Made by a program: the position numbers and the translations under genes
In this document: positions 204 through 58,050 of the stretch, in pieces
Layout: every line of letters begins with the position of its first letter
Numbering within the stretch: position 1 is the first letter of the stretch
From: Candidatus Rokuibacteriota bacterium
Lineage (GTDB): Bacteria; Methylomirabilota; Methylomirabilia; Rokubacteriales; CSP1-6
Assembly (NCBI GenBank): GCA_016193045.1
Contig: JACPSW010000086.1
Span: 11,135 to 75,134 of the forward strand
Reading direction: 5' to 3'
DNA length: 64,000 bases
The notes under the pieces: model-generated
What the model was told of the DNA's origin: nothing
What the model saw: the letters and a program-made list of their open reading frames with translations, nothing else
The model's database searches: none

Positions 204-205
204 CC

Positions 206-11042: not shown

Positions 11043-13085
<2,043 letters not shown>

Positions 13086-13598: not shown

Positions 13599-13949
13599 AT
13601 GGCGTGCCCGGTCCTCTACAACCGGGAGAGCTGACCCACCTGCCAGAAGGCGAGAGAGTTTCTCTCGCTGCGGGGTGTCGCCTACGACAGCCACCTTGTG
13701 GAAACGCGGCCCGTGACGCGCGAGGAGACCGTGGACCTCGCGCGGAAGGCGCGGCGTTTCCTGATCAAGCTCGGGCAGGATACGCTCAGGTTCGACGCGG
13801 CGACCAATCCCATCACCGAGGCGGAGGTCCACGCCTATCTCGTGCACGACGACGGCTTCCTCCGCGTGCCCGTGCTGGTGATGGGGGATCTCCTCGTTCG
13901 AGGCTACACCGAGGAGCTGTACCGGGAGGCCTTAGGAGGCAAGCCATGA
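13599..13949 (+). CDS. Candidate selenoprotein of the Spx/ArsC-family thioredoxin fold with a UxxC motif (in-frame TGA at 13632-13634)
   Basis: An RBS is followed by ATG 13599. The product MACPVLYNRES-[TGA]-PTCQKAREFLSLRGVAYD... aligns RES-U-PT-C-QKA with the Spx/ArsC N-terminal motif SPS-C-TS-C-RKA, so Sec replaces the first Cys of CxxC. The C-terminal RVPVLVMGDLLVRG fits the family. A downstream hairpin is present. Without readthrough only a 10-aa peptide, or a GTG-initiated fragment from 13698, would be made. Confidence 0.55.
13649..13669 (+). promoter_or_regulatory. SECIS-like hairpin downstream of UGA 13632
   Basis: GGCGAGAG-AGUUU-CUCUCGCU forms a 7-8 bp perfect stem. Its 5-nt apical loop contains G and U, about 24 nt 3' of the UGA. 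This geometry is typical for bacterial SECIS. Confidence 0.4.
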
Positions 13950-17282: not shown

Positions 17283-17518
17283 AGAAGGTCCTGCTCTACA
17301 CGATGGAAGGCAACGCCGACGGCGAAGCCGCGCTCGCCTTCTTTCAGGCGCGGGGCACGCGCGTGGACGTGCGCGACGTGGGACGGGACGGCGGAGCGAC
17401 GCTGGAGTGCTTCGACCTGGCGGGGCGGCTCGTCGTGCCCACCGTGGTCATCGACGGCCGCGTGTTTTTCGGGTTCGGGGCGAACCGGGAGGAGATCGAG
17501 CCGTTACTACATACCTAG
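17279..17518 (+). CDS. Glutaredoxin-fold protein lacking the CxxC active site
   Basis: VKKVLLYTMEGNADGE...RLVVPTVVIDGRVFFGFGANREEIEPLL matches Grx topology (YT...TVP...GG..D), but CPYC is replaced by EGNA. Confidence 0.45.
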   Translation: MKKVLLYTMEGNADGEAALAFFQARGTRVDVRDVGRDGGATLECFDLAGRLVVPTVVIDGRVFFGFGANREEIEPLLHT

Positions 17519-18010
17519 CGCGGCGCGCGCTTCGTCCATCACCGCTTCGGTAATAGTGCGGTACCCTTTGCCCTCGGCGTAGCGCTCGATCGCCTTCCGG
17601 GCCATCGGGCGGATGAAGGACGGGATCCGCTCGACCCGCGCCTCCGCCTCCCGGCTCCACGCCATGCCGCTCTGGCCCTGGGCCTCCTGCTCGGTAATCA
17701 TCCCCGCGAACGGACAGCCGGGCCCGGTGGAGCCGCCCTCGGGCCGGGACCCCGGGGCCTCCTCGAAGGCTTCGGGGCGCTGGTGCGCGAGAGAGGAGCG
17801 GAGATGCTCGAAGGGCGCGACCGGCTCCGTCCGGCCGCCGACCTTGACGCCCAGGCTCCGGATCAGCTGGGTCTCGGCGGGATTGGTCAGCATCGCCACG
17901 CGGCGGCTGCAGCGCGGGCACGCGAAGGTCACGGCGAGGGAGCCCTCGTCGGGACCCTGGCTCGCCTGGAGCCGCATCGGCTCGTCGCACTCCACGCAGA
18001 GGAATTTCAA
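17507..18010 (-). CDS. Zinc-ribbon plus PCP_red-like (protochlorophyllide-reductase 57kD C-terminal-like) domain protein
   Basis: The N-terminus carries CVEC...CPRC. The C-terminus ERIPSFIRPMARKAIERYAEGKGYRTITEAVMDEA resembles a PCP_red domain. Confidence 0.45.
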   Translation of the reverse strand: MKFLCVECDEPMRLQASQGPDEGSLAVTFACPRCSRRVAMLTNPAETQLIRSLGVKVGGRTEPVAPFEHLRSSLAHQRPEAFEEAPGSRPEGGSTGPGCPFAGMITEQEAQGQSGMAWSREAEARVERIPSFIRPMARKAIERYAEGKGYRTITEAVMDEARAALGM

Positions 18011-18046
18011 TTGTTCACCTGGGGCGGGCCCCCGGGCCGGGGTCCT

Positions 18047-18412
18047 TCATTTCCGGGCGCGCTCCTCCGCCTCCACGAGAAGCGCGGCGAGCCGCTTGAC
18101 GATCTCCACGGCCAGCTTGGGGTTGGTCCGGATGAAGTGCTCGAGGCGGTCGCCCGGGATCACGCAGAGGGCGACATCCGTCTCGGCCATCGCCGTCGCG
18201 GTGCGCGGACCGGCGCGAAAGAGCGAGACTTCTCCCAGCAGCTCCCCCTCGCCGAAGACCCGGAGGGTCCGCTCCTCGCCGCCGACGATCTTCCGGATGG
18301 CCACCTTTCCTGACTGGATCAGGAACGCCTCATTGTGGGCGTCGTCGCCCTCCTTGAAGATCACCTGCCCGGCGGTGAAGCGTCGGACCTGGACCTGGCT
18401 CAGCGCGCTCAT
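18047..18412 (-). CDS. Cyclic-nucleotide-binding domain protein
   Basis: FGEGELLGEVSLF...RTATAMA is a cNMP-binding phosphate-binding cassette (GE..L....R.A). Confidence 0.7.
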   Translation of the reverse strand: MSALSQVQVRRFTAGQVIFKEGDDAHNEAFLIQSGKVAIRKIVGGEERTLRVFGEGELLGEVSLFRAGPRTATAMAETDVALCVIPGDRLEHFIRTNPKLAVEIVKRLAALLVEAEERARK

Positions 18413-18662
18413 ACCTCGGAGGGGGGCTCCGCCCCCCGTCCGATACCTCCCCCCAGACTCGGCTGCGCCGGCAAAGCCGGCGCTCGAACGGGCGTGCGAC
18501 AGTTTAGCGGCGCTGGGTGTTTCATCCTGTCACCTCGCGGGCTTCATCATACTGACGGGGGCGGGGAAGGGCAAGCCGCCTGACCGGCCTACGGCAATGG
18601 ATAGCGGCGGGGAGCCCGCCGCTTGCGGTGGATCGGGCGAGTGCTGTAAAGTGAAAAGCCGC

Positions 18663-22195: not shown

Positions 22196-23833
22196 TTAGC
22201 CCCCCGCGCCGTCCCCCGACGGTGCCAGGGACGGCACGAGGGGGTCGAGCTTCGGCGGGAGGCACGTGATGTTCCGCTTCCCCGGAATCGGGAGCTCGAG
22301 CGGTGAGAGCCCGAGAGTCTCGAGGGCCCGGTTTCCCGCCTGGAAGGTCCACCGCGGGTCCTTCTGGACGCGCCGAATCAGAAGCTCTTCACGCAGGCGC
22401 CCCTCGGAATCGTAGAGGCCGTCTTCGAGCTCCTCCAGAAAGGAGATATACTCCCGGGGCCCCGGCTCGATATCCCGCCACAGATACCGGTGCAGGAGTT
22501 TCCATTTCGCATCGGTGAACTTGCCGCGCTTCAGCGCCCCGAGGACCTGCCCCGGAGCATAGATCCTCCGGTAGGCGTCGATGAGCGCCCGCTGGAATCT
22601 CGATGGAGGCATGCGGAGGGGAAAGTGCGTCGCGTAGTGCCCGTCGCAGTACGCCCATCCGCGGAAGATGCTCCGGTACCAGGGGACGATGGTTCGATAC
22701 CCGTTGATATGCTCGGGGAAGTGTCCCCAGATCGGAAAGAAATACGCGGTCGCGAGGTTCTGCTCCAGAACAAAATCGACGGTGCGGTGAATGGTTTCCA
22801 GCGAGTCGGTATCGGCCCCGACCACGAAGGACCCCAGGATGCCGAAGCCAAAGGCGTGCAATTTCTGGATCGCGGCGACGATTTGCTCGAGGGTCTGACG
22901 CTTGTTGTAGGCCGTGAGGGTTTCGGGCTGGACCGACTCGTAGCCCTGGTAGATGTAATTGATCCCGGCCCGGCGCATCAGGGCCAGGAGCTCGTCGTCC
23001 CTGGCGACCTCCACCCGGGCGAAGACGACGATGTCGAAGCCGAAGTCCTCCTCGATCATCCGGTGCAGGAGCTTCTTTGTGTAGGGCCGCAGGGAGACGA
23101 ACTCGTTGTCCACGAACAGGAGCGACCGGCCGTACCGCCGCTTATCGCGCAGGTCGCGGATCACGGCCTCGATGTCCCGTTTACGGTAGCCGCTGGCGAA
23201 CATGGTGTTGACGATGCAGAATGTGCACTTGAAGAGGCATCCGCGGGAGGACTGCACCGTCAGCAGCGGCACCTTCCGCCGCAGAAAAAGATCGAGCGGG
23301 CCCATCCGACGGTACCCTTCGATGAGGGAAAAATTCGGGATGGTATCGAACCTGGTCGGCCCGGGTCGGGGAGCCGTCCGGTGAACGCGATCACCGACCC
23401 GATAGGCGATGCCGGCCACCCGCCCCACGTCGCCTCCGGAAGCGATCGCGGCCACGAGCTCCAGGATGGTCTCGTCGCCTTCGCCGAAGACCACGTAATC
23501 GCAGTGCGCGAGGCAGGACTCGGGAAAGTAGGTCGCATGCGTCCCGCCGATGATGGTCGGAATGCCGAGCTTTGATCGAACCTCCCCGGCGAGGCGATAG
23601 ATCTTGTCGGCCCCGGCGTTCAAGGACGAAAAACACACGAGGTCGGAGGCGGCGATCCGGTGCCACTCGGGGGGCTTGATGTGCTCCATATACACCGTCA
23701 CGTCGTACCCGGCTTCGGAGAGGATGGTCCCGATGAGCGGCATGCCGTAGTCCGGCATGACCATCCGATGGCAGAAGTCGGGGAACTCGCCGCCGAGTTG
23801 GATGCAGGTGATTTTCTCGATAGGCATGGTCAT
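22196..23833 (-). CDS. Cobalamin (B12)-binding-domain radical SAM protein
   Basis: An N-terminal B12-binding fold is followed by the Cx3Cx2C motif SRGCLFKCTFC. The protein is about 545 aa. Its start overlaps the stop of the upstream cyclase gene (ATGA). Confidence 0.8.
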   Translation of the reverse strand: MTMPIEKITCIQLGGEFPDFCHRMVMPDYGMPLIGTILSEAGYDVTVYMEHIKPPEWHRIAASDLVCFSSLNAGADKIYRLAGEVRSKLGIPTIIGGTHATYFPESCLAHCDYVVFGEGDETILELVAAIASGGDVGRVAGIAYRVGDRVHRTAPRPGPTRFDTIPNFSLIEGYRRMGPLDLFLRRKVPLLTVQSSRGCLFKCTFCIVNTMFASGYRKRDIEAVIRDLRDKRRYGRSLLFVDNEFVSLRPYTKKLLHRMIEEDFGFDIVVFARVEVARDDELLALMRRAGINYIYQGYESVQPETLTAYNKRQTLEQIVAAIQKLHAFGFGILGSFVVGADTDSLETIHRTVDFVLEQNLATAYFFPIWGHFPEHINGYRTIVPWYRSIFRGWAYCDGHYATHFPLRMPPSRFQRALIDAYRRIYAPGQVLGALKRGKFTDAKWKLLHRYLWRDIEPGPREYISFLEELEDGLYDSEGRLREELLIRRVQKDPRWTFQAGNRALETLGLSPLELPIPGKRNITCLPPKLDPLVPSLAPSGDGAGG

Positions 23834-26800
23834 CCCCTGCGGCCTGCCGGCTCAGCGAGCAGCAGGCGGGCCTCCTCGAGGTCTGGGGCGTCGAAGCCCT
23901 CGGTGAACCAGCCGTAGACGGCCGCCAGCATCCGGCGGGCCTCTTCCTTCCTTCCCTGGCTGTGCCACAGCCGAGCCAGACTCATCGCCGCCCGGAGCTC
24001 CAGGGACTTCGCGCCCTGGCCCCGGGCGATGTCGAGGGCTTGATAAAAGTAGCGCTCGGCTTCGGCCACGTCACTCCGAGAGACCATCAGCAGCCACTCG
24101 CCCTTGAGTCGGTGCAGCTCGGCCTCACACCAGCGCTCGTCGGTCTTGTCCACCACGGCCAGGGCCTCGGCCAGCGCCGCAAGCTCCTCTTCGGCGTGGC
24201 CGGCTTTTCCGTGGGCCTCGGCCAGCATGGCAAGAAAATTCGGCCGCGCAAGGTCGGCCCCCGTCGCGCTGTAGGCGGCAATCCCCTGCCGCTGCAGTCT
24301 GATCCCCTCCTCTGTGTGCCCCTGTTCGGCCAGCGCCCAGCCCCCCAGGATCGCTCCCCAGGCCAGCCAGTACGGGATCCCGTGCTCGCTGGCGAGCGCA
24401 TTCGCCGCCTGGGCCCGCTCCTGGGCTTCCTGCACGTGACGGGATAGCTGACAGAGGGAGGCACCGAGGGTCAGAGCGTAGCTCAGGCTGAAGGGGTGGG
24501 AAAGATGGTGAGCCAGGGCAAGCGCCTCCCGACTCGTCTCACGGGCCTGGTCCGGGTAGCCGAGCATCCACAGGGTGACGGCCTTGTAGGAGAGGCAGGC
24601 CACACCGGGATCCTGCAGCGCCCGGTGGGAGCGGCGCTTCTGCGGATCGTAGAGGGCGATGCCCTGTTCGAAGTGCTCGCGGGCCGAGGCCAGCTCTCCA
24701 AGATGGAACAGGGTCATCCCCAGCGCGTAATGGGCCCACAGGATGAGCGCGGGGCTGTGCGCGCGCTCGGCCAGGGCGAGACACTCCCTCCCCAGGTCGT
24801 GCGCGGTGCGCAACTCCGCCCGCACGATGTAATACCCCCACAGTCCCCGGAGGACCGTGTAGAGCTGAGGCGTCTCGCCGAGCTGCCGACACAGCTCCCG
24901 GGCCCGGGCGTAGGTTTTCTCCACTTCCGGGGCCGCGTAGCTCTTCGCAGCCATCAAGGCGGGGCCGAGGGTGGTCTGCAGGGCCAGCTCCTGCTGGGCG
25001 CGCTCGGGGGTGTCCGGAAACGTCTTCAGCAGCTCCAGGCCCCGGGTGAGGTGCGCGACGGCTTCGACATTCGCCGAGCGCTCGCTCGCCAGCTGACCGG
25101 CTTTCTGCCAGTAGGCGATCGCCTGTTTGCTGAGGCCCGCCTCGGTGAGGTGATGGGCCAGGAGTTCGGGCTGGGTCTCGGAGATCTCGGGGAACCGCTC
25201 GGTCAGCAGATGCGCGATCCGCTGGTGATACTCCTGCCGCGTGCTCTTCAGCAGCGACTGATAGGCGACGTCCTGGACGAGGGCGTGCTTGAAGATGTAC
25301 GTCGCGTGCGGAGGGACACCGCGCTGATAGAGCAGTTCGGCCTCGATCAGTTGCCGCAGTCCCTGCTGGAGCGTCGTCTCGTCAAGCGGGGCGACGGCGT
25401 GGAGCAGCTCGTACGAGAATTGCCGGCCGATCGTGGCGCCCAGCTGCGCCACGGCTTTGACGGTCGCCACGCGATCCAGCCGGGCCATCAGCGAGTCCTG
25501 AAGCGTGGCGGGAATCGCCAGCGGAGGCAGGGGGGCCGTGAGCTCGTAGCGATCCTCCCGCTCCTTGAGGAGGCCCGATTCCAGGACCATCTTGGTCAAT
25601 TCCTCGACGAAGAGCGGGACGCCGTCGGTCTTGGTCACGACCTCGTGGAGGACCTCCGCCGGCAGGGCCTTGCCACCCGCCACCCGCTCGACGAGCTGCT
25701 TCACCTGGTGGCGGGGAAGGCGGCTCAGCGTAATCAGCGTGAGGTGCGCGCGGGCGATCCAGGGCACCTGAAATGCCGGACGGCAGGTGAAGAGGACGAA
25801 GAGGCGCGCGGTCGGGGCCTGGTCCACCAGGAGGCCGAGCAAGGCGAGCGTCGAGGGATCCACCCAGTGGAGGTCTTCCGCGACGAATACCACCGGCTGC
25901 TGCATCGCGAGCTCCACGAGCAGCGTGAGGACGGCTTCGAGCGTCTTCTGCCTCTGCCGCTCGGCCGTCAGGGTCAATGGCGGGTACCGGTCGTCCGGGA
26001 GTGGGAGGGACAGGAGGGAGGCCAGGAGCGGGATGGCTTCCGTCGGGTTGAGGCGATATCCGGACAGGGCGGTCTCCAGCTTGCGCACTTTGTCCGCGGA
26101 CCCATCGCTGCCTTCGAACCGGAACGCCCGTTGAAGCAGATCGATCACCGGGTACAAGGCGCTATTCTGGTGATACAGCGAGCAGCGGCATTCCAGCAGG
26201 GTGTGCGGCTCGGTCGCGATGCGAGCTTGCAGGGTCTGCACCAGGTGTGATTTCCCGATCCCCGCCTCCCCGCTCAGCAGGACCACCTGTCCCAGCCCCT
26301 CCTTGACCTGCTCCCAGCGCCTGAGGAGCAGGCCCATTTCCTCCTCGCGGCCCACCAGAGGAGTCCGTTCGGTGATCGCGGCCTCCAGGGGGCTCTGGAT
26401 GGCACTCTCGCCGAGAACCTGGTAGAGCGTGAGTGGCGTGGAGACACCTCTGAGCTGGTGGGCGCCCAGTTCGCGGAACGTGAACAGTCCCTGGGCCAGC
26501 CGGCGGGTCGCGGCGCTGACGACGACCGTGCCGGGTTCGGCCAGCCCCTGGAGTCGGGCCGCGAGGTTCGGCGTCTCGCCCAGGGCGAGCCGCTCGTGCC
26601 GGGCGCCCGCTCCGATCTCCCCCACGACGACCAGGCCGGTGTGAATTCCCACGCGCGCGTCGAGCCGGACGCCTCGCTCTTCCCGAAGGCGCGCATTCAG
26701 CCTCCCCATGGCATCCACGATCCCCAGGCCCGTGCGGACCGCCCGCGGAGCGTCGTCTTCGTGGGCGCGGGGGTAGCCGAAGTACACCAGGAGACCGTCC

Positions 26801-27162
26801 CCGAGGTATTGCGCGATGTGCCCCTCGTAGTGGCCGATCACCTTGGCACAGGTCTCCTGGTAGCTGCGCACGACGTCGCGCAGTTCTTCAGGGTCGAGGC
26901 GTTCGGAGAGCGCCGTCGATCCCGCGAGATCGCAGAACATGACGGTGAGCTGCCGCCGCTCTGCTTCGGGGGCTCCGGCCTCGGCCGGTGGTGGGGGAGC
27001 GGTCGCGAGCGGTTGACCGCAGCGTTTGCAGAAGTTGTGGTCGGGAGCGTTCTCGGTCCCGCATCGAGCGCACACGACGATGAGTCTTGTCCCGCACTTG
27101 GGACAAAACGCCGCATCAGAAGGCGTCTCGCCGTGACACTGGGGGCACTTCATGCGCGCCAA
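23830..27162 (-). CDS. Multidomain signalling protein: double zinc-ribbon + class III adenylate/guanylate cyclase + STAND/AAA ATPase + TPR
   Basis: The N-terminal zinc ribbons are CPQCHG...CPKCG and CARCG...CKRCG. The cyclase CHD is VMFCDLAGSTAL...GDGLLVYFG...IHTGLVVVGEIG. The P-loop is GEAGIGKS, followed by long TPR-like helical repeats. The protein is 1110 aa. Confidence 0.8.
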   Translation of the reverse strand: MARMKCPQCHGETPSDAAFCPKCGTRLIVVCARCGTENAPDHNFCKRCGQPLATAPPPPAEAGAPEAERRQLTVMFCDLAGSTALSERLDPEELRDVVRSYQETCAKVIGHYEGHIAQYLGDGLLVYFGYPRAHEDDAPRAVRTGLGIVDAMGRLNARLREERGVRLDARVGIHTGLVVVGEIGAGARHERLALGETPNLAARLQGLAEPGTVVVSAATRRLAQGLFTFRELGAHQLRGVSTPLTLYQVLGESAIQSPLEAAITERTPLVGREEEMGLLLRRWEQVKEGLGQVVLLSGEAGIGKSHLVQTLQARIATEPHTLLECRCSLYHQNSALYPVIDLLQRAFRFEGSDGSADKVRKLETALSGYRLNPTEAIPLLASLLSLPLPDDRYPPLTLTAERQRQKTLEAVLTLLVELAMQQPVVFVAEDLHWVDPSTLALLGLLVDQAPTARLFVLFTCRPAFQVPWIARAHLTLITLSRLPRHQVKQLVERVAGGKALPAEVLHEVVTKTDGVPLFVEELTKMVLESGLLKEREDRYELTAPLPPLAIPATLQDSLMARLDRVATVKAVAQLGATIGRQFSYELLHAVAPLDETTLQQGLRQLIEAELLYQRGVPPHATYIFKHALVQDVAYQSLLKSTRQEYHQRIAHLLTERFPEISETQPELLAHHLTEAGLSKQAIAYWQKAGQLASERSANVEAVAHLTRGLELLKTFPDTPERAQQELALQTTLGPALMAAKSYAAPEVEKTYARARELCRQLGETPQLYTVLRGLWGYYIVRAELRTAHDLGRECLALAERAHSPALILWAHYALGMTLFHLGELASAREHFEQGIALYDPQKRRSHRALQDPGVACLSYKAVTLWMLGYPDQARETSREALALAHHLSHPFSLSYALTLGASLCQLSRHVQEAQERAQAANALASEHGIPYWLAWGAILGGWALAEQGHTEEGIRLQRQGIAAYSATGADLARPNFLAMLAEAHGKAGHAEEELAALAEALAVVDKTDERWCEAELHRLKGEWLLMVSRSDVAEAERYFYQALDIARGQGAKSLELRAAMSLARLWHSQGRKEEARRMLAAVYGWFTEGFDAPDLEEARLLLAEPAGRRG

Positions 27163-27232
27163 GCTTAGCGCGCGGCTCCGGATGGATCAACCCCCGAAGT
27201 GCTATCATCGGGGGGTGAGAGGAGGAGGAACG

Positions 27233-27679
27233 ATGGGGGAGACGGAGCTCAACCCGGCCCAGCAGCTGATGGCGCAGGGGTACCACTGATCGGAGGCGGT
27301 CCTGCTGGCCGTGTGCCGGCAGCTCGACATTCAGCAGGAGGTTGTCCCGGGCATCGCCACGGCGTTCGGGGGCGGCATCGGCGGGACCGGGTCGGTGTGC
27401 GGCGCCCTGGTGGGGGCGGTCATGGCGATCGGCCTCCGGCACGGCCGCCAACTCTCATCCGAACGGGACGCCCGGGCCTACGCGCTGACGCAGCAGATGC
27501 GCCGCCGCTTCGAAGGCCAGATGGGCCACGTGGACTGCCGGGAGCTGACCGGGATGGACCTGAGCACGGCGGAGGGCGTCAAGCGGTTCTACGCCTCGGA
27601 TGTGCCCCGGCGGGTCTGCCTGCCGGCGGTCGGCGTGGCGTACCGGGCCGTGATGGAGCTGCTGGGCGAGAAGCGCTAG
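27233..27679 (+). CDS. Candidate selenoprotein of the C_GCAxxG_C_C family (in-frame TGA at 27287-27289)
   Basis: A strong RBS GGAGGAGGA is followed by ATG 27233. The product MGETELNPAQQLMAQGYH-[TGA]-SEAVLLAVCRQL...GSVCGALVGAVMAIGLRHG continues the supplied ORF 27311..27679 in the same frame. The TGA aligns with the first conserved Cys of the family (..GFNCAQAVL.. in typical members), and the later GxCGAxxGA motif is present. Confidence 0.5.
27304..27323 (+). promoter_or_regulatory. SECIS-like bulged hairpin downstream of UGA 27287
   Basis: GCUG(G)CCG-UGUGC-CGGCAGC forms a 7-bp stem with a single bulged G. The apical loop contains GU about 24 nt after the UGA, the same spacing as in the 13632 candidate. 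Confidence 0.35.
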
Positions 27680-27685
27680 CCGGGC

Positions 27686-28528
27686 ATGCCCAAGGCCCCG
27701 ATCAACGGCGTCACCCTGTTTTACGAGGCGATCGGCGAGGGGCCGCCGCTCGTCTTCGTCCACGAGTTCGCCGGCGAGTCCCTGAGCTGGCGCCCCCAGG
27801 TCAACTTCTTCAGCCGGCGCTACCGTACCATCACGTTCAACGCGCGCGGCTACCCGCCGTCGGACGTTCCCGACGATCCCGCGGCCTACTCCCAGCAGCG
27901 GGCCGTGGACGACATCCGGGGTCTCCTGGATCACCTGAAGATCCCGAAGGCCCACGTCTGCGGGCTCTCCATGGGCGGGTACGCGACGCTCCATTTCGGG
28001 CTCAGCTACCCGGAGCGCGCGCTGTCGCTCACGGTGGCGGGCTGCGGCTACGGGAGCGGCGCCCACCGGGAGCAGTTCAAGAAGGACTCGTCGGACCTGG
28101 CGCGGCGCCTGGAGACGGAGGGGATGGAGAAGGTGGCGGAGACCTACACCCGAGGGCCGGCGCGCCTTCAGTTCCTGCGGAAGGATCCCATAGGGTGGCG
28201 GGAATTCCGCGACCGGTTCGCGGCCCAGTCGGCCAAGGGGCACGCCCTGACGATGCGGGGGGTGCAGATCCTCCGCCCGTCGGTCTTCGACCTCGCGGAG
28301 CCGCTCGCGCGGCTCACTGTGCCGACGCTGATCGTCACAGGTGACGAGGACGACCCGTGCCTGGAGCCGGGGATCTTCATGAAGCGAAAGATCCGCTCGG
28401 CCGCGCTCCTCGTCATCCCGAACTCCGGCCACACGATCAACCTCGAGGAGCCGGACCTCTTCAACCGCGCGCTGCTCGACTTCCTGACCGCCGTGGACTC
28501 GGGCTCCTGGCCTACCCGGAGCGCTTAG
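27686..28528 (+). CDS. Alpha/beta-fold hydrolase
   Basis: GLSMGG is the nucleophile elbow. An HGxP-like site and a C-terminal catalytic H (NSGHTINLE) are present. Confidence 0.8.
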   Translation: MPKAPINGVTLFYEAIGEGPPLVFVHEFAGESLSWRPQVNFFSRRYRTITFNARGYPPSDVPDDPAAYSQQRAVDDIRGLLDHLKIPKAHVCGLSMGGYATLHFGLSYPERALSLTVAGCGYGSGAHREQFKKDSSDLARRLETEGMEKVAETYTRGPARLQFLRKDPIGWREFRDRFAAQSAKGHALTMRGVQILRPSVFDLAEPLARLTVPTLIVTGDEDDPCLEPGIFMKRKIRSAALLVIPNSGHTINLEEPDLFNRALLDFLTAVDSGSWPTRSA

Positions 28529-31089: not shown

Positions 31090-34000
31090 TCAGCGGCCCG
31101 CGAGGCTCGCCTGGCACTGGGCGAGGAGCGGGGCCATCTCGAGCCGGGCGGCGAGCGTAGCGGCCTCCCGGTAGCACGTCTCGGCCTGGCTCAAATCGGC
31201 GGGTGCTCGGCGCGCGTGGATATCGCCTAGGAGCCGCAGCGTCCAGGCCTGATGGCCCTCTTCCTTGTGGGTCCGCGCCAGCTCCAGGGCCTGGCGCGCC
31301 ACCGCCAGAGCGCGATCCATCTGTGCCGCGGCAAGCAGCCCCTCCCCCAGGTGCGCCGTCCAGAGGGCCAGGTAGGCCTTCACACCGAGCGCCTCCGTGA
31401 GGCTCACGCCCTCCTCGAGGAGCGGGAGCCCCTCCGAGACCCGGCCGAGGCGCACGAGGGTGTGTCCGAGGATGGATGAGGGGATCGGCCGCCAGACTGC
31501 GAGGCCCCGCTCCCGGCACGCCTGCAGGCTCTTCTCGAGGTCGGGGCGCGCGCCCTCGAAGTTGCCCTCGCGGTTCTTGACGAGGCCCGCCAGGGTCCAG
31601 GCGATGGCCTCGCTGTAAGCGTGGCCGCTGCCGTCGGCCGCGCGGCGGGCTTTCTCGACCGCCGCGCCGGCCTCGACGAAATCGCCCAGCTCGGCCCAGG
31701 CGAAGGCCAGCCACCCGCACGAGGCCACGTACGCGAATCCCCCGCGGGTCACGCCGGGCGCCCCCTCGTTTTTTTCGATCAGGACGATGTTCCGGCCGAG
31801 CGTGGAGACCGCCTCGCGGTAGCGCCCCTGGGCATGGGCGCAGGTCCCCATGTACTGGAGCGCCAGCACCTGGAGCGGCAGGTCGCCCGCGCGCTCGCCG
31901 ATCGCCAGGCAGCGCTGGCCGTACTCGCTGGCCAGGTGGGGCTCGCCCTTCAGGTAGTGGTAGTTGATCAGGTAGGTGTACACGCGGGCCAGCCGCTGCT
32001 CGTCGTCCAGGGCCCGGGCGAGCCCTTCGGCCTCCCGGGAGAGGGCGAGGACCTCTTCGAGACGCCCCAGCTGGAGGAGCGGCGGGCGCAGGTCGAGGGC
32101 GATGTCGATGGTCCGCTCGTCGCGCTTCCGGCTCTGGCCGAGGCGCGCGTTGGCCTCCAGCGCCCGCTGGAGAAACGTCGCCGCCTCGGTGTTGGCGCAG
32201 AGGCCGGCGGCCTTGGCGCCGGCCTCGCGCAGGTAGGTCACGGCCTTCTCCCACTCCTCGCCCTGGAGGAAGTGGTGGGCCAGCATCTCGACGTGCTCGG
32301 AGAGGCGCAGGGCATAGACCTCCTCCACCGCCTCGCCGATGAGCCGGTGGAGCGCCTTCCTGCGCTGGACCAGGAGGCTCTCGTAGGCCACCTCCTGAAC
32401 GAGGGCCTGGCGGAACATGTACGCGGCCTCGTCGAGGGACTTCTCGATGATCAGCTCGAGCTCCAGGAGCTTCTGGAGCGCCGTCGGGATCCCCTCCCCG
32501 CGATCGGCCACGCGCGCGAGCAGGCGCTGGGTGAAATCCCGGCCGATGACGGAAGCCATCTGCAGCGCTGATTTTGCAAGGTCAGGCAGGCGATCGATGC
32601 GCGCGGCCAGGACGTCGAGGATCGTCGGCGGGATCTTGAGCGCCTCGGCGCCATGGCTCCACCCGGTCTCCCTCAGCGAGCGGGCGACTTCTTCGATGAA
32701 CAGCGGGTTGCCGCCCGTCTTCTCGACGACGGCAGACAGCAGCTCGGGCGGGGCGGGGGTCTCGGCGAGGATGCCGCGGGCGAGCGCCGCCCGCTCGTCG
32801 GGCTCGAGCGGCTGAAGCACGATCCGGGAGCTCACGGGGCTCCCGGCGGCCGGCGGGGTCGCGCGCGGACGGCAGGTCAGGATGACGAGGGCGGGGGCGC
32901 GCGGGATGGCCGCCGCCCAGAAGTTCAGGAACTCGGCCGAGGCCCCGTCGAGCCACTGGCAGTTCTCGAAGACGAAGACGTGGGGCCGCTGCCGCGCGGC
33001 GGCCGCGCTGAGCCGGCCGAGGGCGTCGAGGAGGCGCTCCTTGCGCTCCTGCGGGGAGAGCGCCGCCATCCCGCCCTCCGCGGCGCCGAGGGACAAGAGG
33101 TAGCGGAGCGCCGGCGCGGCCGTCTCGACATCGGGGCCGAGCTCCGCGAGCCGCGCCGTGAGCTTCCGGTCCATCTCCCGCTCCGGATCGCCATCGGCCA
33201 GCCCCAGCAGGGCGCGCACGATGTCGATCACCGGCAGGTACGGCGTGGACTGGCCGTAGGGGACGCACGTCCCTTCGACCCAGGCCATGGTCCCGGCGGG
33301 GAGGCGGGTGCGGAGTTCCCAGAGGAGGCGCGACTTGCCGATCCCCGCTTCCCCGAGGATCGTGACCACCCGGCCGCGCCCGGCGCGGGCCTCGTCGGCG
33401 GCGCTCAGGAGGGCGGCGAGCTCCGCTTCCCGCCCGACGAACGTCGAGAGCCCGGCCTCGGAGGCGACGGCGAGCCGGCTCCGGTGGGCCCTCCTGCGGA
33501 GCGGGCGGAAGACCTCAACCGGAAGGCTTTTCCCCTTCACCGTGTGCGTGCCGAGCGCCTCGCAGTCGAAGTACCCGGCGACCAGGTGGTGAGTGGCCTC
33601 GCTGATCGCCACCGTCCCCGGCTCGGCCAGCGCCTGCAGGCGCGCGGCCAGGTTGACGGTGTCGCCCTGGGCGGTGTAGTCCATGCGGAGGTCGTCCCCG
33701 ATCTTGCCGACGACGACGAGTCCCGTATTCACGCCGATCCTGAGGGCGACCCGCTGGCCGCGGCTCCGCTGAAGCTCGTCGCCGACCTTGCGCATGGCTT
33801 CCTGGATTGCCAGCGCCGCCTCCACGGCGCGCGCCGCGTGGTCCTCCAGGGCGAGGGGGGCGCCGAACAGGGCCATGATCCCGTCGCCGGTGAACTGGTT
33901 CACCGTGCCCTCGTACCGGTGGACCTCCGCCAGCATGATCTCGAAGAGGCGATTCATCAGGTCGTGAAGCTCCTCCGGGTCCAGCTGCTCGGAGAGGCCC

Positions 34001-34293
34001 GTGAAGTTCTGGAGGTCGGCGAAGAGGACGGTGACCTGCTTGCGCTCGCCCTCCAGCGCCGTCCGGGACGTGAGGATGCGCTCGGCCAGATGCCTGGGCG
34101 TGTAGGAACGGGGGGCGTCGAACTGGGCCGCGGGGACCGCGCCCGCGACGGGGGTCCCGCATTGATCGCAGAACTTCGCCCCCTCGCGGAGGTCGCCCTG
34201 ACAACGCGAGCACCGGGCGGCGAGGGGGGCGCCGCACCGGTCGCAGAACCTGGCGCCTTCGCGCAGATCGTGCCGGCAGCGCGGGCAGTTCAT
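31090..34293 (-). CDS. Paralogous zinc-ribbon + class III adenylate cyclase + STAND/AAA ATPase + TPR protein
   Basis: CPRCRH..CDRCG / CSRCQG..CDQCG are followed by VLFADLQNFTGLS...GDGIMALFG and GEAGIGKSRLL, then TPR repeats. It has the same architecture as 23830-27162. The protein is 1067 aa. Confidence 0.8.
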   Translation of the reverse strand: MNCPRCRHDLREGARFCDRCGAPLAARCSRCQGDLREGAKFCDQCGTPVAGAVPAAQFDAPRSYTPRHLAERILTSRTALEGERKQVTVLFADLQNFTGLSEQLDPEELHDLMNRLFEIMLAEVHRYEGTVNQFTGDGIMALFGAPLALEDHAARAVEAALAIQEAMRKVGDELQRSRGQRVALRIGVNTGLVVVGKIGDDLRMDYTAQGDTVNLAARLQALAEPGTVAISEATHHLVAGYFDCEALGTHTVKGKSLPVEVFRPLRRRAHRSRLAVASEAGLSTFVGREAELAALLSAADEARAGRGRVVTILGEAGIGKSRLLWELRTRLPAGTMAWVEGTCVPYGQSTPYLPVIDIVRALLGLADGDPEREMDRKLTARLAELGPDVETAAPALRYLLSLGAAEGGMAALSPQERKERLLDALGRLSAAAARQRPHVFVFENCQWLDGASAEFLNFWAAAIPRAPALVILTCRPRATPPAAGSPVSSRIVLQPLEPDERAALARGILAETPAPPELLSAVVEKTGGNPLFIEEVARSLRETGWSHGAEALKIPPTILDVLAARIDRLPDLAKSALQMASVIGRDFTQRLLARVADRGEGIPTALQKLLELELIIEKSLDEAAYMFRQALVQEVAYESLLVQRRKALHRLIGEAVEEVYALRLSEHVEMLAHHFLQGEEWEKAVTYLREAGAKAAGLCANTEAATFLQRALEANARLGQSRKRDERTIDIALDLRPPLLQLGRLEEVLALSREAEGLARALDDEQRLARVYTYLINYHYLKGEPHLASEYGQRCLAIGERAGDLPLQVLALQYMGTCAHAQGRYREAVSTLGRNIVLIEKNEGAPGVTRGGFAYVASCGWLAFAWAELGDFVEAGAAVEKARRAADGSGHAYSEAIAWTLAGLVKNREGNFEGARPDLEKSLQACRERGLAVWRPIPSSILGHTLVRLGRVSEGLPLLEEGVSLTEALGVKAYLALWTAHLGEGLLAAAQMDRALAVARQALELARTHKEEGHQAWTLRLLGDIHARRAPADLSQAETCYREAATLAARLEMAPLLAQCQASLAGR

Positions 34294-45669: not shown

Positions 45670-46472
45670 GCGTTTTTGACATCGCGGGCATCGCCTGCGG
45701 GGTGGAGTGCCGGGAGGAGGCGTTCTGGAACCTCCTCTCCCCCCGCTACGCCGAGTTCGCGTCGGACGACATCCCGCGGCTCCGGCTTCGGGTCGAGGTG
45801 ACGGCGCCTCCCTCGGACGACGTGGCGGCCCGGTGGTCAGGCCCCTTCGCCCGCATCGCGGGCGGCGACGGGGTCCTCTCCATCGAGGGCGCCGGCTTCA
45901 GGGGGGAGTTCGACGAGCGATCGGGGCAGGGCCGGATCGCCCAGCCGCTCGATCCTTCCCCTTTCGAGACGTTCCTGACCGCGATCTACGCCGGGCGCCT
46001 CCTCCGGGCCGGCGGGTTCTTCCTCCACGCGGCCGCGCTGGTGGATGGCGACCGGGCGCACGTCTTTTTCGGTCCATCGGAGAGCGGGAAGACGACGGTG
46101 GCCGAGCTGGTCAGAGAGGGCGTCATCTCCGACGAGATCGTGGCCATCCGGAGGGAGGGCGATCAGTACCGGGTCTCAGGAGTCCCCTGGCGAGGCCGGC
46201 GGCTCACCGCTCCCCTGGCAGGACTTTTTCGTCTCAGAAAGGCCAGGGAGACCTCGTTCACCCCTCTCGCCCCGGTGAAAGCGGTGCGACAGCTCCTGCC
46301 GAGCGTCTTCTTCTCCCGAGCGGATGCGGCGGAAATCGCCCGCTTCCTGGAGGTGGGGGGGGAGCTGGTGACCAGGGTTCCCTGCTACGAGATGCGCTTC
46401 GCGCCCGACCGCTCCTTCTGGCATGCGCTGCCCCGCAGCGGGCAAGGGGAGAAACATGCTCTCTCAGTATGA
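45645..46472 (+). CDS. HPr-kinase-C-terminal-domain-like P-loop serine kinase
   Basis: FFLHAAALVDGDRAHVFFGPSESGKTTVAELVREGVISDEIVAI matches the HprK C-domain Walker A plus the downstream DD/E. No HprK N-domain is present. Confidence 0.7.
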   Translation: MRRQQEVLGVFDIAGIACGVECREEAFWNLLSPRYAEFASDDIPRLRLRVEVTAPPSDDVAARWSGPFARIAGGDGVLSIEGAGFRGEFDERSGQGRIAQPLDPSPFETFLTAIYAGRLLRAGGFFLHAAALVDGDRAHVFFGPSESGKTTVAELVREGVISDEIVAIRREGDQYRVSGVPWRGRRLTAPLAGLFRLRKARETSFTPLAPVKAVRQLLPSVFFSRADAAEIARFLEVGGELVTRVPCYEMRFAPDRSFWHALPRSGQGEKHALSV

Positions 46473-47505
46473 TCGCCTGATCCGGACGGCCTCGCGGGGG
46501 CACGTTCCGTTCGGGGTCCTCTTCGAGGTCACCCATCGGTGCAACCTCGGCTGCGAGCACTGTTATCTGACCGAGGGGCCGGTGGGCCGGCCGAAGCCCA
46601 CCCGGGAGGAACTCCCTCTCGAAGAGATTCGTCCCATCCTCGATCAGCTGGCCGCGGCGGGCTGCCTTTTCCTGACGCTCTCCGGCGGAGAGGTCTTCAT
46701 GCGGCGGGACTTTCTCCAGATTGTGGCTCACGCCCGGTCGCGCGGGTTCTCCGTGACGGTCTTCACCACGGGGACGCTGCTGACGCCCGAGACCGCGACC
46801 GAGCTGGCCAACCTTCATCCCCTCTCCGTGGAGGTGAGCATCTACAGCGCGCGGTCGGAGATCCACGACCGCGTCACGCGAATCCCCGGCTCCCACGCTC
46901 GCTCGCTGCGGGCCCTTCGAATGTTGAAGGAGCGCGGCGTGATCATCCTGATCAAAAGTCCCCTCATGAATCTCAATTCGGGGGAATACCACGGCATCGT
47001 CGAATTGGCCGGGGACCTGGGGGCGGGGTACGGTTTCGACCCGATGTTGGTCCCGCGGCGGGACGGGAACACGGCTCCCGTGGGACTGGGCCTGGATCGC
47101 CAGCAGCTCTACGACTTCTTCTCCGATCCCGTCCTGGCCAAAGAGCACTTCCAGCCCGTGAAGTGCCTCCCCCAGCCGGGGGAGGAGATCTGCGGCACCG
47201 GGCGGCGGACCTGCCTGATCTCTCCCTACGGCGACGTCTTCCCGTGCGGGGTTCATCCCATCCCGGCGGGGAACCTCCGGGAGAAGAGCTTCTACGAGAT
47301 CTGGACCGGCTCCCCGCTCCTCAAGGATCTCCGCACGAAGACCGTGGACGATCTGAGAGGAGGGGCGAAGGCGATCCCCGGCTTCCGGTGCAGCGCGCTT
47401 GCGCTCATCGAGAACGGGGATTTCCTCGGTCCCTTCCGCCGTGGCGAGGAGTTGGCCGAGATCCAGGCCGAAGTCCGCGGCCGCCAGGGAAGCGCTCCCG
47501 CCTGA
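46456..47505 (+). CDS. Radical SAM / SPASM-domain peptide-modifying enzyme (no N-terminal RRE domain)
   Basis: Cx3Cx2C is THRCNLGCEHCYL, about 30 aa from the N-terminus. GGEVFMRRDF is the rSAM glycine-rich motif. The C-terminal Cys-rich SPASM region is CGTGRRTCLISPYGDVFPC...RCS. It overlaps the kinase gene by 17 nt. Confidence 0.85.
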   Translation: MLSQYDRLIRTASRGHVPFGVLFEVTHRCNLGCEHCYLTEGPVGRPKPTREELPLEEIRPILDQLAAAGCLFLTLSGGEVFMRRDFLQIVAHARSRGFSVTVFTTGTLLTPETATELANLHPLSVEVSIYSARSEIHDRVTRIPGSHARSLRALRMLKERGVIILIKSPLMNLNSGEYHGIVELAGDLGAGYGFDPMLVPRRDGNTAPVGLGLDRQQLYDFFSDPVLAKEHFQPVKCLPQPGEEICGTGRRTCLISPYGDVFPCGVHPIPAGNLREKSFYEIWTGSPLLKDLRTKTVDDLRGGAKAIPGFRCSALALIENGDFLGPFRRGEELAEIQAEVRGRQGSAPA

Positions 47506-47512
47506 GCCTCCG

Positions 47513-48718
47513 TTGTTCCCCGACCACTCCCGAGACGAGGCGTTCCTGGCTTCCGCGGCCCGCGCCTTCCTGAACGAGGAGCCCCCCAGAGAGACGCTCG
47601 GGTCCGCCGCGCACTCGCTCGATTGGGGCTGGATCCTCAGCCGGGCCGAAGATGAACGGCTCGCCCCCCTCCTCTATGCGGTCGTTCGCTCCCTCCCCGT
47701 TCCCGGCACCGTCCTCGAGCGTCTCCGCGCCGCCTGGGTCAACGGCCGCCGCCAGCACCTGGCCGGGGCCGAGCAGCTCTCCGAGGTCCTCTCCGCCTTC
47801 GAGCGCGAGGGACTGGCGGTCCTGGCGCTGAAGGGCCCGGTCCTGGGCGAGAGCCTCTACCGGGATCCGGGGCTCCGTTCCTTCACCGACCTGGACCTCC
47901 TCATCCACGCCGCCGACGTTCCCCGCGCCGTGTCGCTGCTCGCGGCGCTGGGCTATTGCGACCAGGACCCCGAGCACTCGCTCCCGTACAAGCTGGCCTG
48001 GCGGCATTCGGCTTCCTTTGCCGGTGCCGGGAGCCGGGGGGACCGCCTTCCCGTCGATCTGCACTGGGGGCTGTTGGAATCGCCCGGCATCGCGCCGGCG
48101 CCGCCGATCGGCCTCAAGGAGATCTGGGATCGGGCGGTCAAGCTTGAGGGATGGGATCGTTCCGCGCGAGGGCTCTGCCCCGAGGATCTGCTCATCTACC
48201 TGGCGGCCCACTGGGCGGTTCACCACGCGTTCTCGGGTTTCCTCTGGGGGCTGGACCTGGCCCTGCTACTGCGCCGCTGCGGAGGCGCTCTGGACTGGGA
48301 GGGCGTGGCTGAGCGCGGCAAGCGCTGGGGAGTGCGCGGGGCGCTCTACCACGCGCTGCAGGAGATTCAGGCGGGATTCGCCGTGGGGCCTCCGCCTGGA
48401 TTCCTGGCCGGGCTCCGGCCGGGGGGGCTGCGCCGCTGGCTGCTCGAATGGCTCCGCCACCGAAGGGGCGACCGGCTGGAGCGGCTCGACTACCTCATTC
48501 CCGTCCTCCTGATGGACAGGGGATCGGACGTGTTCCGGGCCCTGTCGAGCGCCGCGCTACCCGCAGGTGGCTGGGCGCGCTTCCGCTACGGGAAGCGGTC
48601 CCTGCTCGGGGCGTACCTGGCCCATTACAGGAGGGCTGGAAGAGTCTGCCTCAGGACTGCTCGCGCCGCTTTCCCGCTCACCGTCCCTCTCCCCCGCTGG
48701 GGGAGAGGACAAAGGTGA
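47513..48718 (+). CDS. Uncharacterised nucleotidyltransferase-family protein (PF14907-like)
   Basis: ...LAVLALKGPVLGESLYRDPGLRSFTDLDLLIHAADVPRAVSLLAALGY matches the minimal NTase fold G[SG]...D.D. A TTG/GTG start lies just after the rSAM stop. Its stop codon falls inside a REP-like repeat. Confidence 0.55.
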   Translation: MFPDHSRDEAFLASAARAFLNEEPPRETLGSAAHSLDWGWILSRAEDERLAPLLYAVVRSLPVPGTVLERLRAAWVNGRRQHLAGAEQLSEVLSAFEREGLAVLALKGPVLGESLYRDPGLRSFTDLDLLIHAADVPRAVSLLAALGYCDQDPEHSLPYKLAWRHSASFAGAGSRGDRLPVDLHWGLLESPGIAPAPPIGLKEIWDRAVKLEGWDRSARGLCPEDLLIYLAAHWAVHHAFSGFLWGLDLALLLRRCGGALDWEGVAERGKRWGVRGALYHALQEIQAGFAVGPPPGFLAGLRPGGLRRWLLEWLRHRRGDRLERLDYLIPVLLMDRGSDVFRALSSAALPAGGWARFRYGKRSLLGAYLAHYRRAGRVCLRTARAAFPLTVPLPRWGRGQR

Positions 48719-50641: not shown

Positions 50642-50860
50642 TTGGACGAAGTCATCACCCCTTCCCAAGTAGCAGCCCTTCTCAAGATTCACGTAAAAAC
50701 CGTCTATCGGCTCGCTGAGGCGGGGGCGATACCCGGAAACAAGTTCGGGCGCAACTGGCGCTTTAGCAAAAAGATCATTCTGAAGCTCGTGGCAGGGACG
50801 CCCAATTTGCGCATAGGCGCTGAGAACCCAGGACGGACAGAAGGAGCGAAGTCCTCTTGA
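50642..50860 (+). CDS. Small excisionase/MerR-type helix-turn-helix DNA-binding protein
   Basis: PSQVAALLKIHVKTVYRLAEAGAIPGNKFGRNWRF is the excisionase-family HTH pattern. Its ATGA overlaps the wza-like start. Confidence 0.55.
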   Translation: MDEVITPSQVAALLKIHVKTVYRLAEAGAIPGNKFGRNWRFSKKIILKLVAGTPNLRIGAENPGRTEGAKSS

Positions 50861-52443
50861 TGGGTTGCGGCGGGTTCGCTCGACTGGTTTTTCTGCGCAG
50901 CCGGGGAGTTCTCTGCTGGAGCCTGGTCCTCACTCTCGCGTTCCCCCCTTCGCTCTGGGCCCAGGCCCCCTCCCCAGGCGCGCCGACTGCGCTCCCGGCT
51001 GCTCCGCCGGCCGCCGCCCCGCCCGCGCAGACGCGCTTCATGCTGGGTCCCGATTACCGCCTGGGCCCCGGTGACACGGTGGAGGTGATCATCGCGGGCC
51101 GGCTGGACATCGCGCGCCAGGTCCTGGTGGTGACGCCCGAGGGCAACCTCCACCTCCCGCCGATGGGCACCATCCCCGTCGCCGGGCTCACCGTGGCGGA
51201 GGCGCGGAAAGAACTCGTCCGGCGGGCCCAGCCGCTCTTCAAGTTCTTCGACCTGACCTTCACCGTGCTGATCGCCCGCGCCTTCGAGGTCACGGTCTCG
51301 GGAGAGGTGGAGCGGCCGGGAACCTACGCCGTGACCGCCACGGACCGGCTCGTCCAGGTGATCACCGCCGCCGGCGGGGTCACGCCCCGCGGATCGCTCC
51401 GGAACGTGGCCCTGCTGCGTGCGGGAACGGCGGAGCGCACGGCGGACCTCTTGCGCTTCGCCCTGCGCGGGGACCTGTCCCACAACCCGTACATGAGCGA
51501 GGGGCTGGCGGTCCACGTGCCGCCCCGCGGTCCCTCGGTCAGCCTGCTGGGAAGCGTGGCGCGCCCCGGCGACTACGAGATCGGGGAGGAGAGGACTCTG
51601 GCGACCCTTCTCGCTCTGACCGGAGGGCTTGCCTACCAGGCGGCGCTGGGCGAAGCGCGGCTCACGCGGGTCGGTCCCGACAACAAGAAGGAGACCGGCG
51701 CCCTGGATCTCGCGCGGGCGCTGGCCCCCGGCGCCCCGGACGTGGAGCTCCGGGGCGGGGACGTGCTGTTCGTGCCTCCGATCGCCGTGCTTCAGGACGT
51801 GGTGGAGGTGCGCGGCGCGTTCCTCGGGACCGGGGCGGACCCGGGCAAGACCACGACCGTCGGCAAGCAGACGCTCGTGGCGCGGATTGAGCTGGCCTCG
51901 GGCGACCGCGTCAAGGACGTCGTCGTGAAGGCCGGCGGGGTGGCGCCGTACGCCAACTTCCGGCGGGCCTTCGTGGAGCGCGGCGGGGTCAGTGGCCCGC
52001 CGCAGACCATCCCCGTGGACCTCCAGCGGCTCCTCGTGGAAAAGGACGAGAGCCAGAACCTCGCGCTCCTGAACGGGGATGTGTTCGTCGTCCCGGTCGT
52101 CGAGGACAAGGTCTACGTCGTCGGAAACGTGCGGGCCCCGGGGGCCTTCGATCACCGGCCATTCTACTCCCCCAAGGACTACATCCTCCTGGCGGGCGGC
52201 CCGGATCGCCGCGCCAAGATGGGGGCGGCCACCGTCACGCTCCCCAGCGGCAAGGTGTACAAGCTCGAGGAGGCGCCGCCGCTGGAGCCCGGGGCCGTGG
52301 TGCAGGTGCCGGAGGTGCTGTTGAAGTGGTGGGAGGATTACCTCCTGATTGCCTCCGCGGTCGCCAGCATCGCGACCGCCTATACGGGGCTCTACATCCT
52401 GTTCAAGGGGCCGATCTTCGTGCCGGCCGGCGGCGACCGGTAA
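50857..52443 (+). CDS. Polysaccharide export outer-membrane protein (Wza-like: Poly_export + SLBB domains)
   Basis: YRLGPGDTVEVII...PEGNLHLPPMGTIPVAGLTVAEARKEL is the Poly_export motif. Repeated SLBB-like units and a C-terminal TM helix follow. Confidence 0.8.
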   Translation: MMGCGGFARLVFLRSRGVLCWSLVLTLAFPPSLWAQAPSPGAPTALPAAPPAAAPPAQTRFMLGPDYRLGPGDTVEVIIAGRLDIARQVLVVTPEGNLHLPPMGTIPVAGLTVAEARKELVRRAQPLFKFFDLTFTVLIARAFEVTVSGEVERPGTYAVTATDRLVQVITAAGGVTPRGSLRNVALLRAGTAERTADLLRFALRGDLSHNPYMSEGLAVHVPPRGPSVSLLGSVARPGDYEIGEERTLATLLALTGGLAYQAALGEARLTRVGPDNKKETGALDLARALAPGAPDVELRGGDVLFVPPIAVLQDVVEVRGAFLGTGADPGKTTTVGKQTLVARIELASGDRVKDVVVKAGGVAPYANFRRAFVERGGVSGPPQTIPVDLQRLLVEKDESQNLALLNGDVFVVPVVEDKVYVVGNVRAPGAFDHRPFYSPKDYILLAGGPDRRAKMGAATVTLPSGKVYKLEEAPPLEPGAVVQVPEVLLKWWEDYLLIASAVASIATAYTGLYILFKGPIFVPAGGDR

Positions 52444-52457
52444 GGAAGGAGGGGGGC

Positions 52458-53264: not shown

Positions 53265-53329
53265 ATGCTGCGTGGCGCGGCCCGCGCGCCGGGCGTGGTG
53301 GCATGAGAGGAGGGCGCTGGTTGGTTAGG

Positions 53330-54963: not shown

Positions 54964-54972
54964 TCTAAGGCT

Positions 54973-58023: not shown

Positions 58024-58050
58024 CCCGTCGCCCCGGGCCTGGGTTCGGCG

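Follow-up and report, generated by a model that had tools for sequence, protein, structure and literature searches.

Does the TGA codon that interrupts a small C_GCAxxG_C_C-family gene of a Candidatus Rokuibacteriota bacterium end translation, or does it encode selenocysteine (Sec, U)? The gene begins at position 27233 of a 64,000-nucleotide (nt) stretch of contig JACPSW010000086.1 (assembly GCA_016193045.1), and this whole stretch is referred to here as the window. An earlier inspection made from the sequence alone (the sequence-only reading) had proposed Sec recoding of a Cys-aligned TGA, a proposal that is now supported by Sec/Cys pairs, by the peptide flanking the TGA and by a conserved hairpin. 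Judged on these comparative sequence data, TGA 27287 is very probably the Sec codon of a 148-residue C_GCAxxG_C_C (PF09719 / TIGR01909) selenoprotein.

The ribosome binding site, the ATG at 27233, the in-frame TGA and the same-frame open reading frame (ORF) from 27311 that the sequence-only reading had described are all present at the positions it gave (Table 1). The 18 codons MGETELNPAQQLMAQGYH precede the TGA, and the same frame then continues with SEAVLLAVCRQL...GSVCGALVGA.... The predicted protein thus carries a four-position signature of U19, C56, C102 and C129, of which the first is Sec and not Cys.

Membership of the family was assessed with the read-through protein in which U was written as C. 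This protein matches PF09719 with 95.5 bits (cut-off 27 bits) from residue 17 onwards, over profile positions 1-117 of 118, and TIGR01909 with 80 bits (cut-off 47.4 bits) over positions 1-118 of 120. The ORF from GTG 27311 scores 77.3 bits against PF09719, the N-terminal extension being worth 18 extra bits. Moreover, profile position 1 is aligned in the read-through form whereas the alignment of the shorter ORF begins at position 12, and therefore the family profile spans the TGA. The profile check that had been suggested for this locus consequently places the TGA at the first conserved Cys position, with the alignment running straight through it.

The family has been associated with Sec before. 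The curated NCBIfam name of TIGR01909 is 'C-GCAxxG-C-C family (seleno)protein', and a search of NCBIfam also returned a related model named 'HUGP/GUXX-star fusion selenoprotein'. A 'C-GCAxxG-C-C family protein, pfam09719' is among the prokaryotic selenoproteins of the Zhang et al. 2022 review (PMC9312934), whilst a 2026 review lists two C-GCAxxG-C-C forms distinguished by the position of Sec (PMC13188914). The first form goes back to a 'Putative redox protein' in the Olavius delta-1 symbiont study (PMC1976440) and the second to the Global Ocean Sampling (GOS) study (PMC2398784). With the TIGR01909 / PF09719 (seleno)proteins the window protein shares the full-length domain, scores above the curated cut-offs, the four-Cys signature with GxCGAxxG, a single Sec, a Sec insertion sequence (SECIS) within the coding sequence (CDS) just 3′ of the UGA and a presumed redox function. 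Nothing essential sets it apart, except that the window gene is truncated to 122 amino acids (aa) in GenBank.

This truncation is widespread. The best database match (P0001; 99% identity, 122 aa), named C_GCAxxG_C_C family protein by NCBI and derived from a Candidatus Rokubacteria metagenome-assembled genome (MAG), begins MCRQLD... at the GTG, and ~100 close homologs are called at 120-125 aa with ~80% query coverage. This is the pattern produced by gene callers that restart past an in-frame stop. GTG 27311 is not the real start of the gene, and the window gene is a mis-annotated member of an already known selenoprotein family; Sec forms are not new at the family level.

We then compared the TGA codon across orthologs, using a scan with one genome per GTDB species that provided 80 loci. 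The aligned codon is TGA in 69 of these by automatic count and in L065 by inspection, that is in at least 70/80, and TGC or TGT in 8/80; Sec, not Cys, is the dominant state of the subfamily among the sampled species representatives. The TGA loci are found in Rokubacteria, Dehalococcoidia, Anaerolineae, Nitrospirota, Acidobacteriota, Gemmatimonadota, Desulfobacterota, Zixibacteria, Ignavibacteria and others (~10 phyla). At locus L012 (L012:3043, Nitrospiraceae bin899 chromosome CP070644.1), a paralog of L009 in the same genome, the Sec position reads TAA and the downstream hairpin is intact, which probably reflects a recent pseudogene or a base error. At L060:830-960 an in-frame deletion has taken the Sec codon and its flanks (...ATQIM-VLLAVCQKF...) and the hairpin nucleotides stay. 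A gene with a bacterial-type SECIS inside the CDS also occurs on a 2.7-kb contig labelled as a Thermoplasmatota archaeon (L061, JAJISI010000120.1), a contig that is most likely mis-binned.

The full-length homologs in the protein databases, a minority, have Cys at the TGA position (P0002, P0043, P0074, P0082, P0083, P0089 and P0119). P0002, which is 77% identical to the window protein, reads ...KRYHCSEAVLLAVC... across this position, within the longer stretch ...AQQLMAKRYHCSEAVLLAVC.... Around the TGA the consensus peptide is M-E-x-N-x-A-x-Q-x-x-A-x-G-Y-x-U-S-E-A-V-L-L-A-V-C, and the start Met with the N-terminal peptide is kept in L001-L007 and L028. The 15 codons upstream show coding periodicity, the mean entropy being 0.91 bits at the first codon position, 0.83 bits at the second and 1.31 bits at the third. 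No Sec form has more than the one internal TGA, and the 127-142 codons after it make up an intact ORF in which C56, C102 and C129 are retained. The Cys alignment of the TGA, first noted in this one gene, therefore extends to Sec/Cys pairs across the 80 loci. Orthologs that start downstream behind unrelated sequence had been named beforehand as the pattern that would speak against recoding; instead, both the in-frame TGA and the peptide upstream of it are kept. Taken together, these data rule out a sequencing error, a pseudogene and a downstream start behind an unrelated leader. Moreover, 18 orthologs terminate in TGA (the others in TAG or TAA), as do many genes of the window, and TGA is therefore not reassigned.

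Directly 3′ of the UGA lies a candidate SECIS, an unbulged hairpin with an 8-base-pair (bp) stem whose minimum free energy (MFE) in ViennaRNA is -12.9 kcal/mol (z = -3.3 versus shuffles). Numbering the U of the UGA as +1, 20 nt (+4 to +23) separate the UGA from the loop. The hairpin contains a near-invariant 15-nt core, which in the window reads CUGGCCGUGUGCCGG and thereby has a U.G wobble relative to the consensus; the invariant block folds as CUGGC / CGUGU / GCCAG. Within the core, the third-codon positions +21, +24, +27 and +33 are invariant in 70/70 TGA loci and +30 in 65/70, whereas third positions flanking the core have entropies of 1.4-1.9 bits. The Leu, Ala and Val codons at +19 to +27 are fixed, whilst those for Ala, Val and Leu at +10 to +18 are not (1.6-1.8 bits). 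Since like amino acids just upstream in the same genes vary freely, codon bias does not explain the core. Conservation of the hairpin therefore exceeds what the protein sequence needs, with synonymous sites fixed in the core and variable beside it.

The pairing itself is retained across the same loci. Standard pairs are formed in 70/70 at positions 17-35 (U-A, U.G), 21-31 (G-C only), 22-30 (G-C, G.U) and 23-29 (C-G only), in 69/70 at 20-32 (U-A, U.G), in 68/70 at 19-33 (C-G, U.G) and in 40/70 at 18-34 (G-C, C-G, U.G, U-A). After de-duplication to 67 distinct orthologs, pair 18-34 is C-G in 21 sequences and G-C in 11, and the stem substitutions are wobble-compatible (U-A to U.G in 9-10 sequences, G-C to G.U in 5). 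In these 67 orthologs the register is paired in 86.4% of cells, a figure that drops to 13-54% once the 3′ arm is moved by 1-3 columns, and the core pairs are formed in at least 97%. The hairpin is found in nearly all MFE folds of the orthologs, with stems of 5-8 bp. The sequence-only reading had drawn a bulged hairpin, GCUG(G)CCG-UGUGC-CGGCAGC, at this place. A conserved hairpin does exist in the orthologs, but the bulged register is neither favoured nor conserved: it can be drawn, yet only 59.5% of its cells are paired, 3/7 of its pairs fail in most orthologs, and the 20-nt segment on which it was based folds by itself into the unbulged register in ViennaRNA.

We compared the hairpin with the published consensus for bacterial SECIS elements (bSECIS), the Zhang and Gladyshev model as summarised in PMC13188914 (Fig. 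2A). That model calls for an apical loop of 3-9 nt (5 nt in the window), an upper stem of 4-16 bp (8 bp), a G at loop position 1 or 2 that is usually followed by G or U (C-G-U-G-U, with G25 invariant and U26 in 69/70), a spacing of 16-37 nt between UGA and apical loop (20 nt) and an MFE of -7.5 kcal/mol or lower, and the window hairpin agrees with it on every count. Like the canonical element of the Escherichia coli fdhF type, it is a stem-loop within the ORF that has a 5-nt loop with G-U at positions 2-3, with its stem length, spacing and folding energy also in keeping. It differs from that type in that its stem has no bulged U and no Rfam model matches it, and in that the 15-nt core of this family is unusually invariant across ~10 phyla. 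Many bSECIS of other bacterial selenoprotein genes resemble neither each other nor those of E. coli (PMC13188914).

The window contains a second gene that follows the same pattern. It encodes an unrelated protein with a U-P-T-C motif that resembles ArsC and glutaredoxin (Grx), and the sequence-only reading had offered it as a second candidate at 13632. This candidate proved equally well supported, with a TGA at the same codon in 61/61 informative metagenome loci, some of which have UxxS in place of UxxC, and with a hairpin of its own, GCGAGRGAG-NNN-CUCUCGC, conserved 3′ of the TGA. The protein matches both the Glutaredoxin and the ArsC families of Pfam, Glutaredoxin more strongly, and its best NCBIfam match is NF041106, 'ArsC family (seleno)protein' (54.9 bits, below the cut-off of 85). 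An 'Arsenate reductase-like protein, UxxC' is a selenoprotein entry in both PMC9312934 and PMC13188914. With NF041106 it has in common an N-terminal active-site UxxC, a thioredoxin fold, a SECIS directly downstream and a full-length alignment, and it differs from that family in its sub-threshold score and its stronger match to Glutaredoxin. It is probably a divergent subfamily of the ArsC family (seleno)proteins. A third in-frame TGA candidate (17507-18529, - strand) was rejected. It consists of two stop-to-stop segments, with high GC content at third codon positions (GC3), that are joined by a TGA; its translation is Arg/Gly/Pro-rich antisense nonsense, and scanning by GC3 in a genome of 69% GC produced it as an artefact.

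Some results weigh against Sec insertion at TGA 27287. Pfam scans of ~38 ORFs together with ARAGORN found no selA, selB, selD or tRNA-Sec within the 64-kb window. The hairpin has no match in Rfam at the gathering threshold, nor any at E ≤ 10 on 27230-27400, and a longer context of 64 nt folds no better than shuffles (z = -0.55). With so little variation in the core there is scant true covariation, and a column-shuffle control for the percentage paired was not significant (56/500); the hairpin argument rests on the invariance of synonymous sites and on the shifted-register control. Moreover, the Cys-type homologs are only a partly clean negative control for the hairpin. It is intact in 5/9 close Cys-type homologs (L146, L147, L148, L149 and L151), which have 72-85% nucleotide identity to the nearest Sec form, partly degraded in L019 and L150, and lost in L027 and L034 as well as in the distant Cys forms L075-L080. 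Third-position departures number 5/45 in Cys forms versus 5/350 in Sec forms (Fisher p = 0.0025, uncorrected for phylogeny). The hairpins in Cys forms look like decaying 'fossil' SECIS elements that date from a series of Sec-to-Cys conversions, though they give slight room for a different constraint on the core nucleotides.

The lack of Sec machinery in the window, the persistence of the hairpin in several Cys-type homologs where no SECIS is needed, and the weak covariation would all suit an explanation in which near-cognate readthrough or reassignment places a standard residue (Trp, Gly or Cys) at the UGA, with the hairpin serving for pausing or mRNA stability. However, UGA remains a terminator in the window and among the orthologs, homologs invariably have Cys at this position, which is the signature of Sec/Cys pairs, and curators name the family a (seleno)protein. 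The agreement of the hairpin with the whole bSECIS consensus, loop G and spacing included (PMC13188914), and its decay in more distant Cys forms also argue against this explanation, which we consider improbable. Less probable still is that the TGA is a genuine stop, with the gene being the 122-codon ORF from GTG 27311 and the upstream 18 codons an untranslated leader. GenBank and most gene callers annotate it so, as with P0001 and the ~100 short orthologs, and this ORF is still above the Pfam threshold. Nevertheless, the 'leader' is an in-frame peptide conserved with coding periodicity in 70 loci across phyla, it matches the first 11 profile positions and supplies the first family-defining Cys position, and the Cys homologs read straight through it. 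In addition, GTG 27311 has no ribosome binding site and lies in the hairpin loop, whereas a strong site fronts ATG 27233. Lastly, a pseudogene or an assembly or sequencing error for TGC or TGT, each one base away from TGA and with the TAA-bearing paralog L012 as a possible precedent for a pseudogene, is effectively refuted by the recurrence of this TGA in 70 or more independent assemblies, each with one internal stop and an intact downstream ORF, and by the like pattern of the gene at 13599.

The Sec reading of TGA 27287 is also in keeping with the biology of the phylum. A Sec trait of the organism is indirectly supported because a second, unrelated gene of the window has a conserved Cys-position TGA with a hairpin, and because Sec use has been reported in Methylomirabilota, with 63 predicted selenoprotein genes in one MAG (PMC13188914, the 2026 review) and with Sec-type group 4 [NiFeSe] hydrogenases (PMC13582414). 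By the standard bacterial route, SelB with guanosine triphosphate (GTP) and Sec-tRNA(Sec) would bind the apical part of the hairpin when the ribosome reaches the UGA, and, where release factor 2 is outcompeted, Sec would be inserted at residue 19. A cell lacking selenium or SelB would be expected to stop translation after 18 residues.

What might Sec19 do in the protein? As it replaces the first of the four invariant Cys of the family, we hypothesise that it is a working residue, serving either as a redox-active selenol or, as the fold would suggest, as a ligand (one of four) to an iron or iron-sulfur centre resembling that of split-Soret cytochrome c. To place it structurally we used an AlphaFold model of P0002, a natural Cys ortholog, in lieu of the window protein. 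This model is confident (predicted local distance difference test, pLDDT, 89.5) and all-helical, with positions 19, 56 and 102 at, or one residue before, the N-termini of helices and position 129 within a helix. Its fold is that of the N-terminal iron-centre domain of split-Soret cytochrome c (PDB 1H21), the only structurally characterised relative, at a sequence identity of 16% and with an alignment that covered the GxCGAxxG stretch only. The window protein shares this domain but is neither a member of the split-Soret family nor a cytochrome. It scores 18.5 bits against NF047622 (split-Soret cytochrome c; cut-off 400) and, unlike that protein, it stands alone at 148 aa without a cytochrome domain; the two haem motifs of the family are missing, CXXCH being absent from the window protein.

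Foldseek returned no match in the PDB, and the proposed role as metal ligand is drawn from fold similarity. The split-Soret centre is reportedly a Cys-ligated [2Fe-2S] cluster (Abreu et al. 2003). For Sec19 we regard selenol/thiol redox chemistry and ligation of a metal cluster as about equally plausible roles. Tentatively, and with a good deal of doubt, U19, C56, C102 and C129 may ligate an Fe or Fe-S centre, in which case a selenolate-ligated cluster of the Fe-S type would be present in ~10 phyla, the gene and its SECIS core possibly having been transferred horizontally. The dominance of the Sec state and the fold match to an iron-centre domain provide a concrete, testable hypothesis on the role of selenium here.

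For annotation, these data imply that the window gene and ~100 database orthologs are recorded in N-terminally truncated form, without their key residue, and that the ArsC/Grx-like gene is likewise mis-annotated. Because of such truncation, the selenoproteome of Rokubacteria/Methylomirabilota is made to look smaller than it is, as is that of many Chloroflexota and Desulfobacterota MAGs. The 15-nt core CUGGCCGUGUGCCAG is a handy signature with which to find such genes and annotate them correctly. These results leave current knowledge standing and overturn nothing.

Table 1. Coordinates of the two predicted selenoprotein genes, their elements and the flanking genes in the window.
Feature	Position	Strand	Details
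Shine-Dalgarno-like GGAGGAGGA	27221-27229	+	3 nt 5′ of start codon; read from sequence
Full predicted selenoprotein CDS, C_GCAxxG_C_C family	27233-27679	+	ATG 27233; 148 codons; Sec = codon 19
In-frame TGA, predicted Sec at residue 19	27287-27289	+	Replaces first of four conserved family Cys
Candidate SECIS hairpin	27302-27322	+	5′ arm CUGCUGGC 27302-27309; loop CGUGU 27310-27314; 3′ arm GCCGGCAG 27315-27322
Near-invariant 15-nt hairpin core	27305-27319 (+19 to +33)	+	Consensus CUGGCCGUGUGCCAG; codons L-A-V-C-(Q/R)
GTG, start codon in public annotation	27311-27313	+	Inside SECIS loop; same frame as full CDS (ORF list)
Cys56 codon, second conserved Cys	27398-27400	+	In GxCGAxxG motif (VCGALVG); from sequence; kept in 70/70 Sec-form orthologs
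Cys102 codon, third conserved Cys	27536-27538	+	From sequence; kept in 70/70 Sec-form orthologs
Cys129 codon, fourth conserved Cys	27617-27619	+	From sequence; kept in 70/70 Sec-form orthologs
Stop codon TAG of selenoprotein CDS	27677-27679	+	
Second predicted selenoprotein gene, ArsC/glutaredoxin-like, U-P-T-C motif	13599-13949	+	ATG 13599; stop 13947-13949
TGA of ArsC/Grx-like gene	13632-13634	+	MACPVLYNRES-TGA-PTCQKAREFL...
Candidate SECIS hairpin of ArsC/Grx-like gene	13650-13668	+	GCGAGAGAG-UUU-CUCUCGC; -11.3 kcal/mol, z = -3.25
Large zinc-ribbon/adenylate-cyclase/AAA/TPR protein gene	23830-27162	-	Divergent from selenoprotein gene
Alpha/beta-hydrolase gene	27686-28528	+	Pfam Abhydrolase_1, Abhydrolase_6; 6 nt past selenoprotein stop

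The genes on either side of the selenoprotein gene were considered as a clue to function and rejected. The alpha/beta-hydrolase gene may be co-transcribed with it, but this adjacency and the local synteny are kept only in the closest relative, L001, whilst the neighbours differ in other phyla, so that nothing about function can be read from the context. Elsewhere the gene lies most often beside a gatA-like amidase, as at 13 Chloroflexi-type loci (L019, L020, L027, L030, L032, L034, L035, L044, L048, L050, L054, L064 and L070). The gatA and gatB genes of the window itself lie at 119-3111, 24 kb from the selenoprotein gene. The large divergent gene at 23830-27162 (-) has a paralog 4 kb away at 31090-34293 (-); the two encoded proteins (~1,100 aa) combine a double zinc ribbon with an adenylate/guanylate cyclase domain, an AAA_16 ATPase domain and TPR repeats.

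Elsewhere in the window, a thiamine pyrophosphate (TPP) riboswitch (Rfam RF00059, 60.1 bits; 12974-13084, -) fronts thiC (11273-13021, -; Pfam ThiC_Rad_SAM) in an ordinary arrangement. At 46423-48718 (+) a radical-SAM/SPASM gene precedes one for an uncharacterised nucleotidyltransferase, and a polysaccharide export and biosynthesis cluster with Poly_export/SLBB, Wzz/GNVR tyrosine-kinase-like, Wzy_C, PMT_2 and Polysacc_synt proteins extends over 50857-62487 (+).

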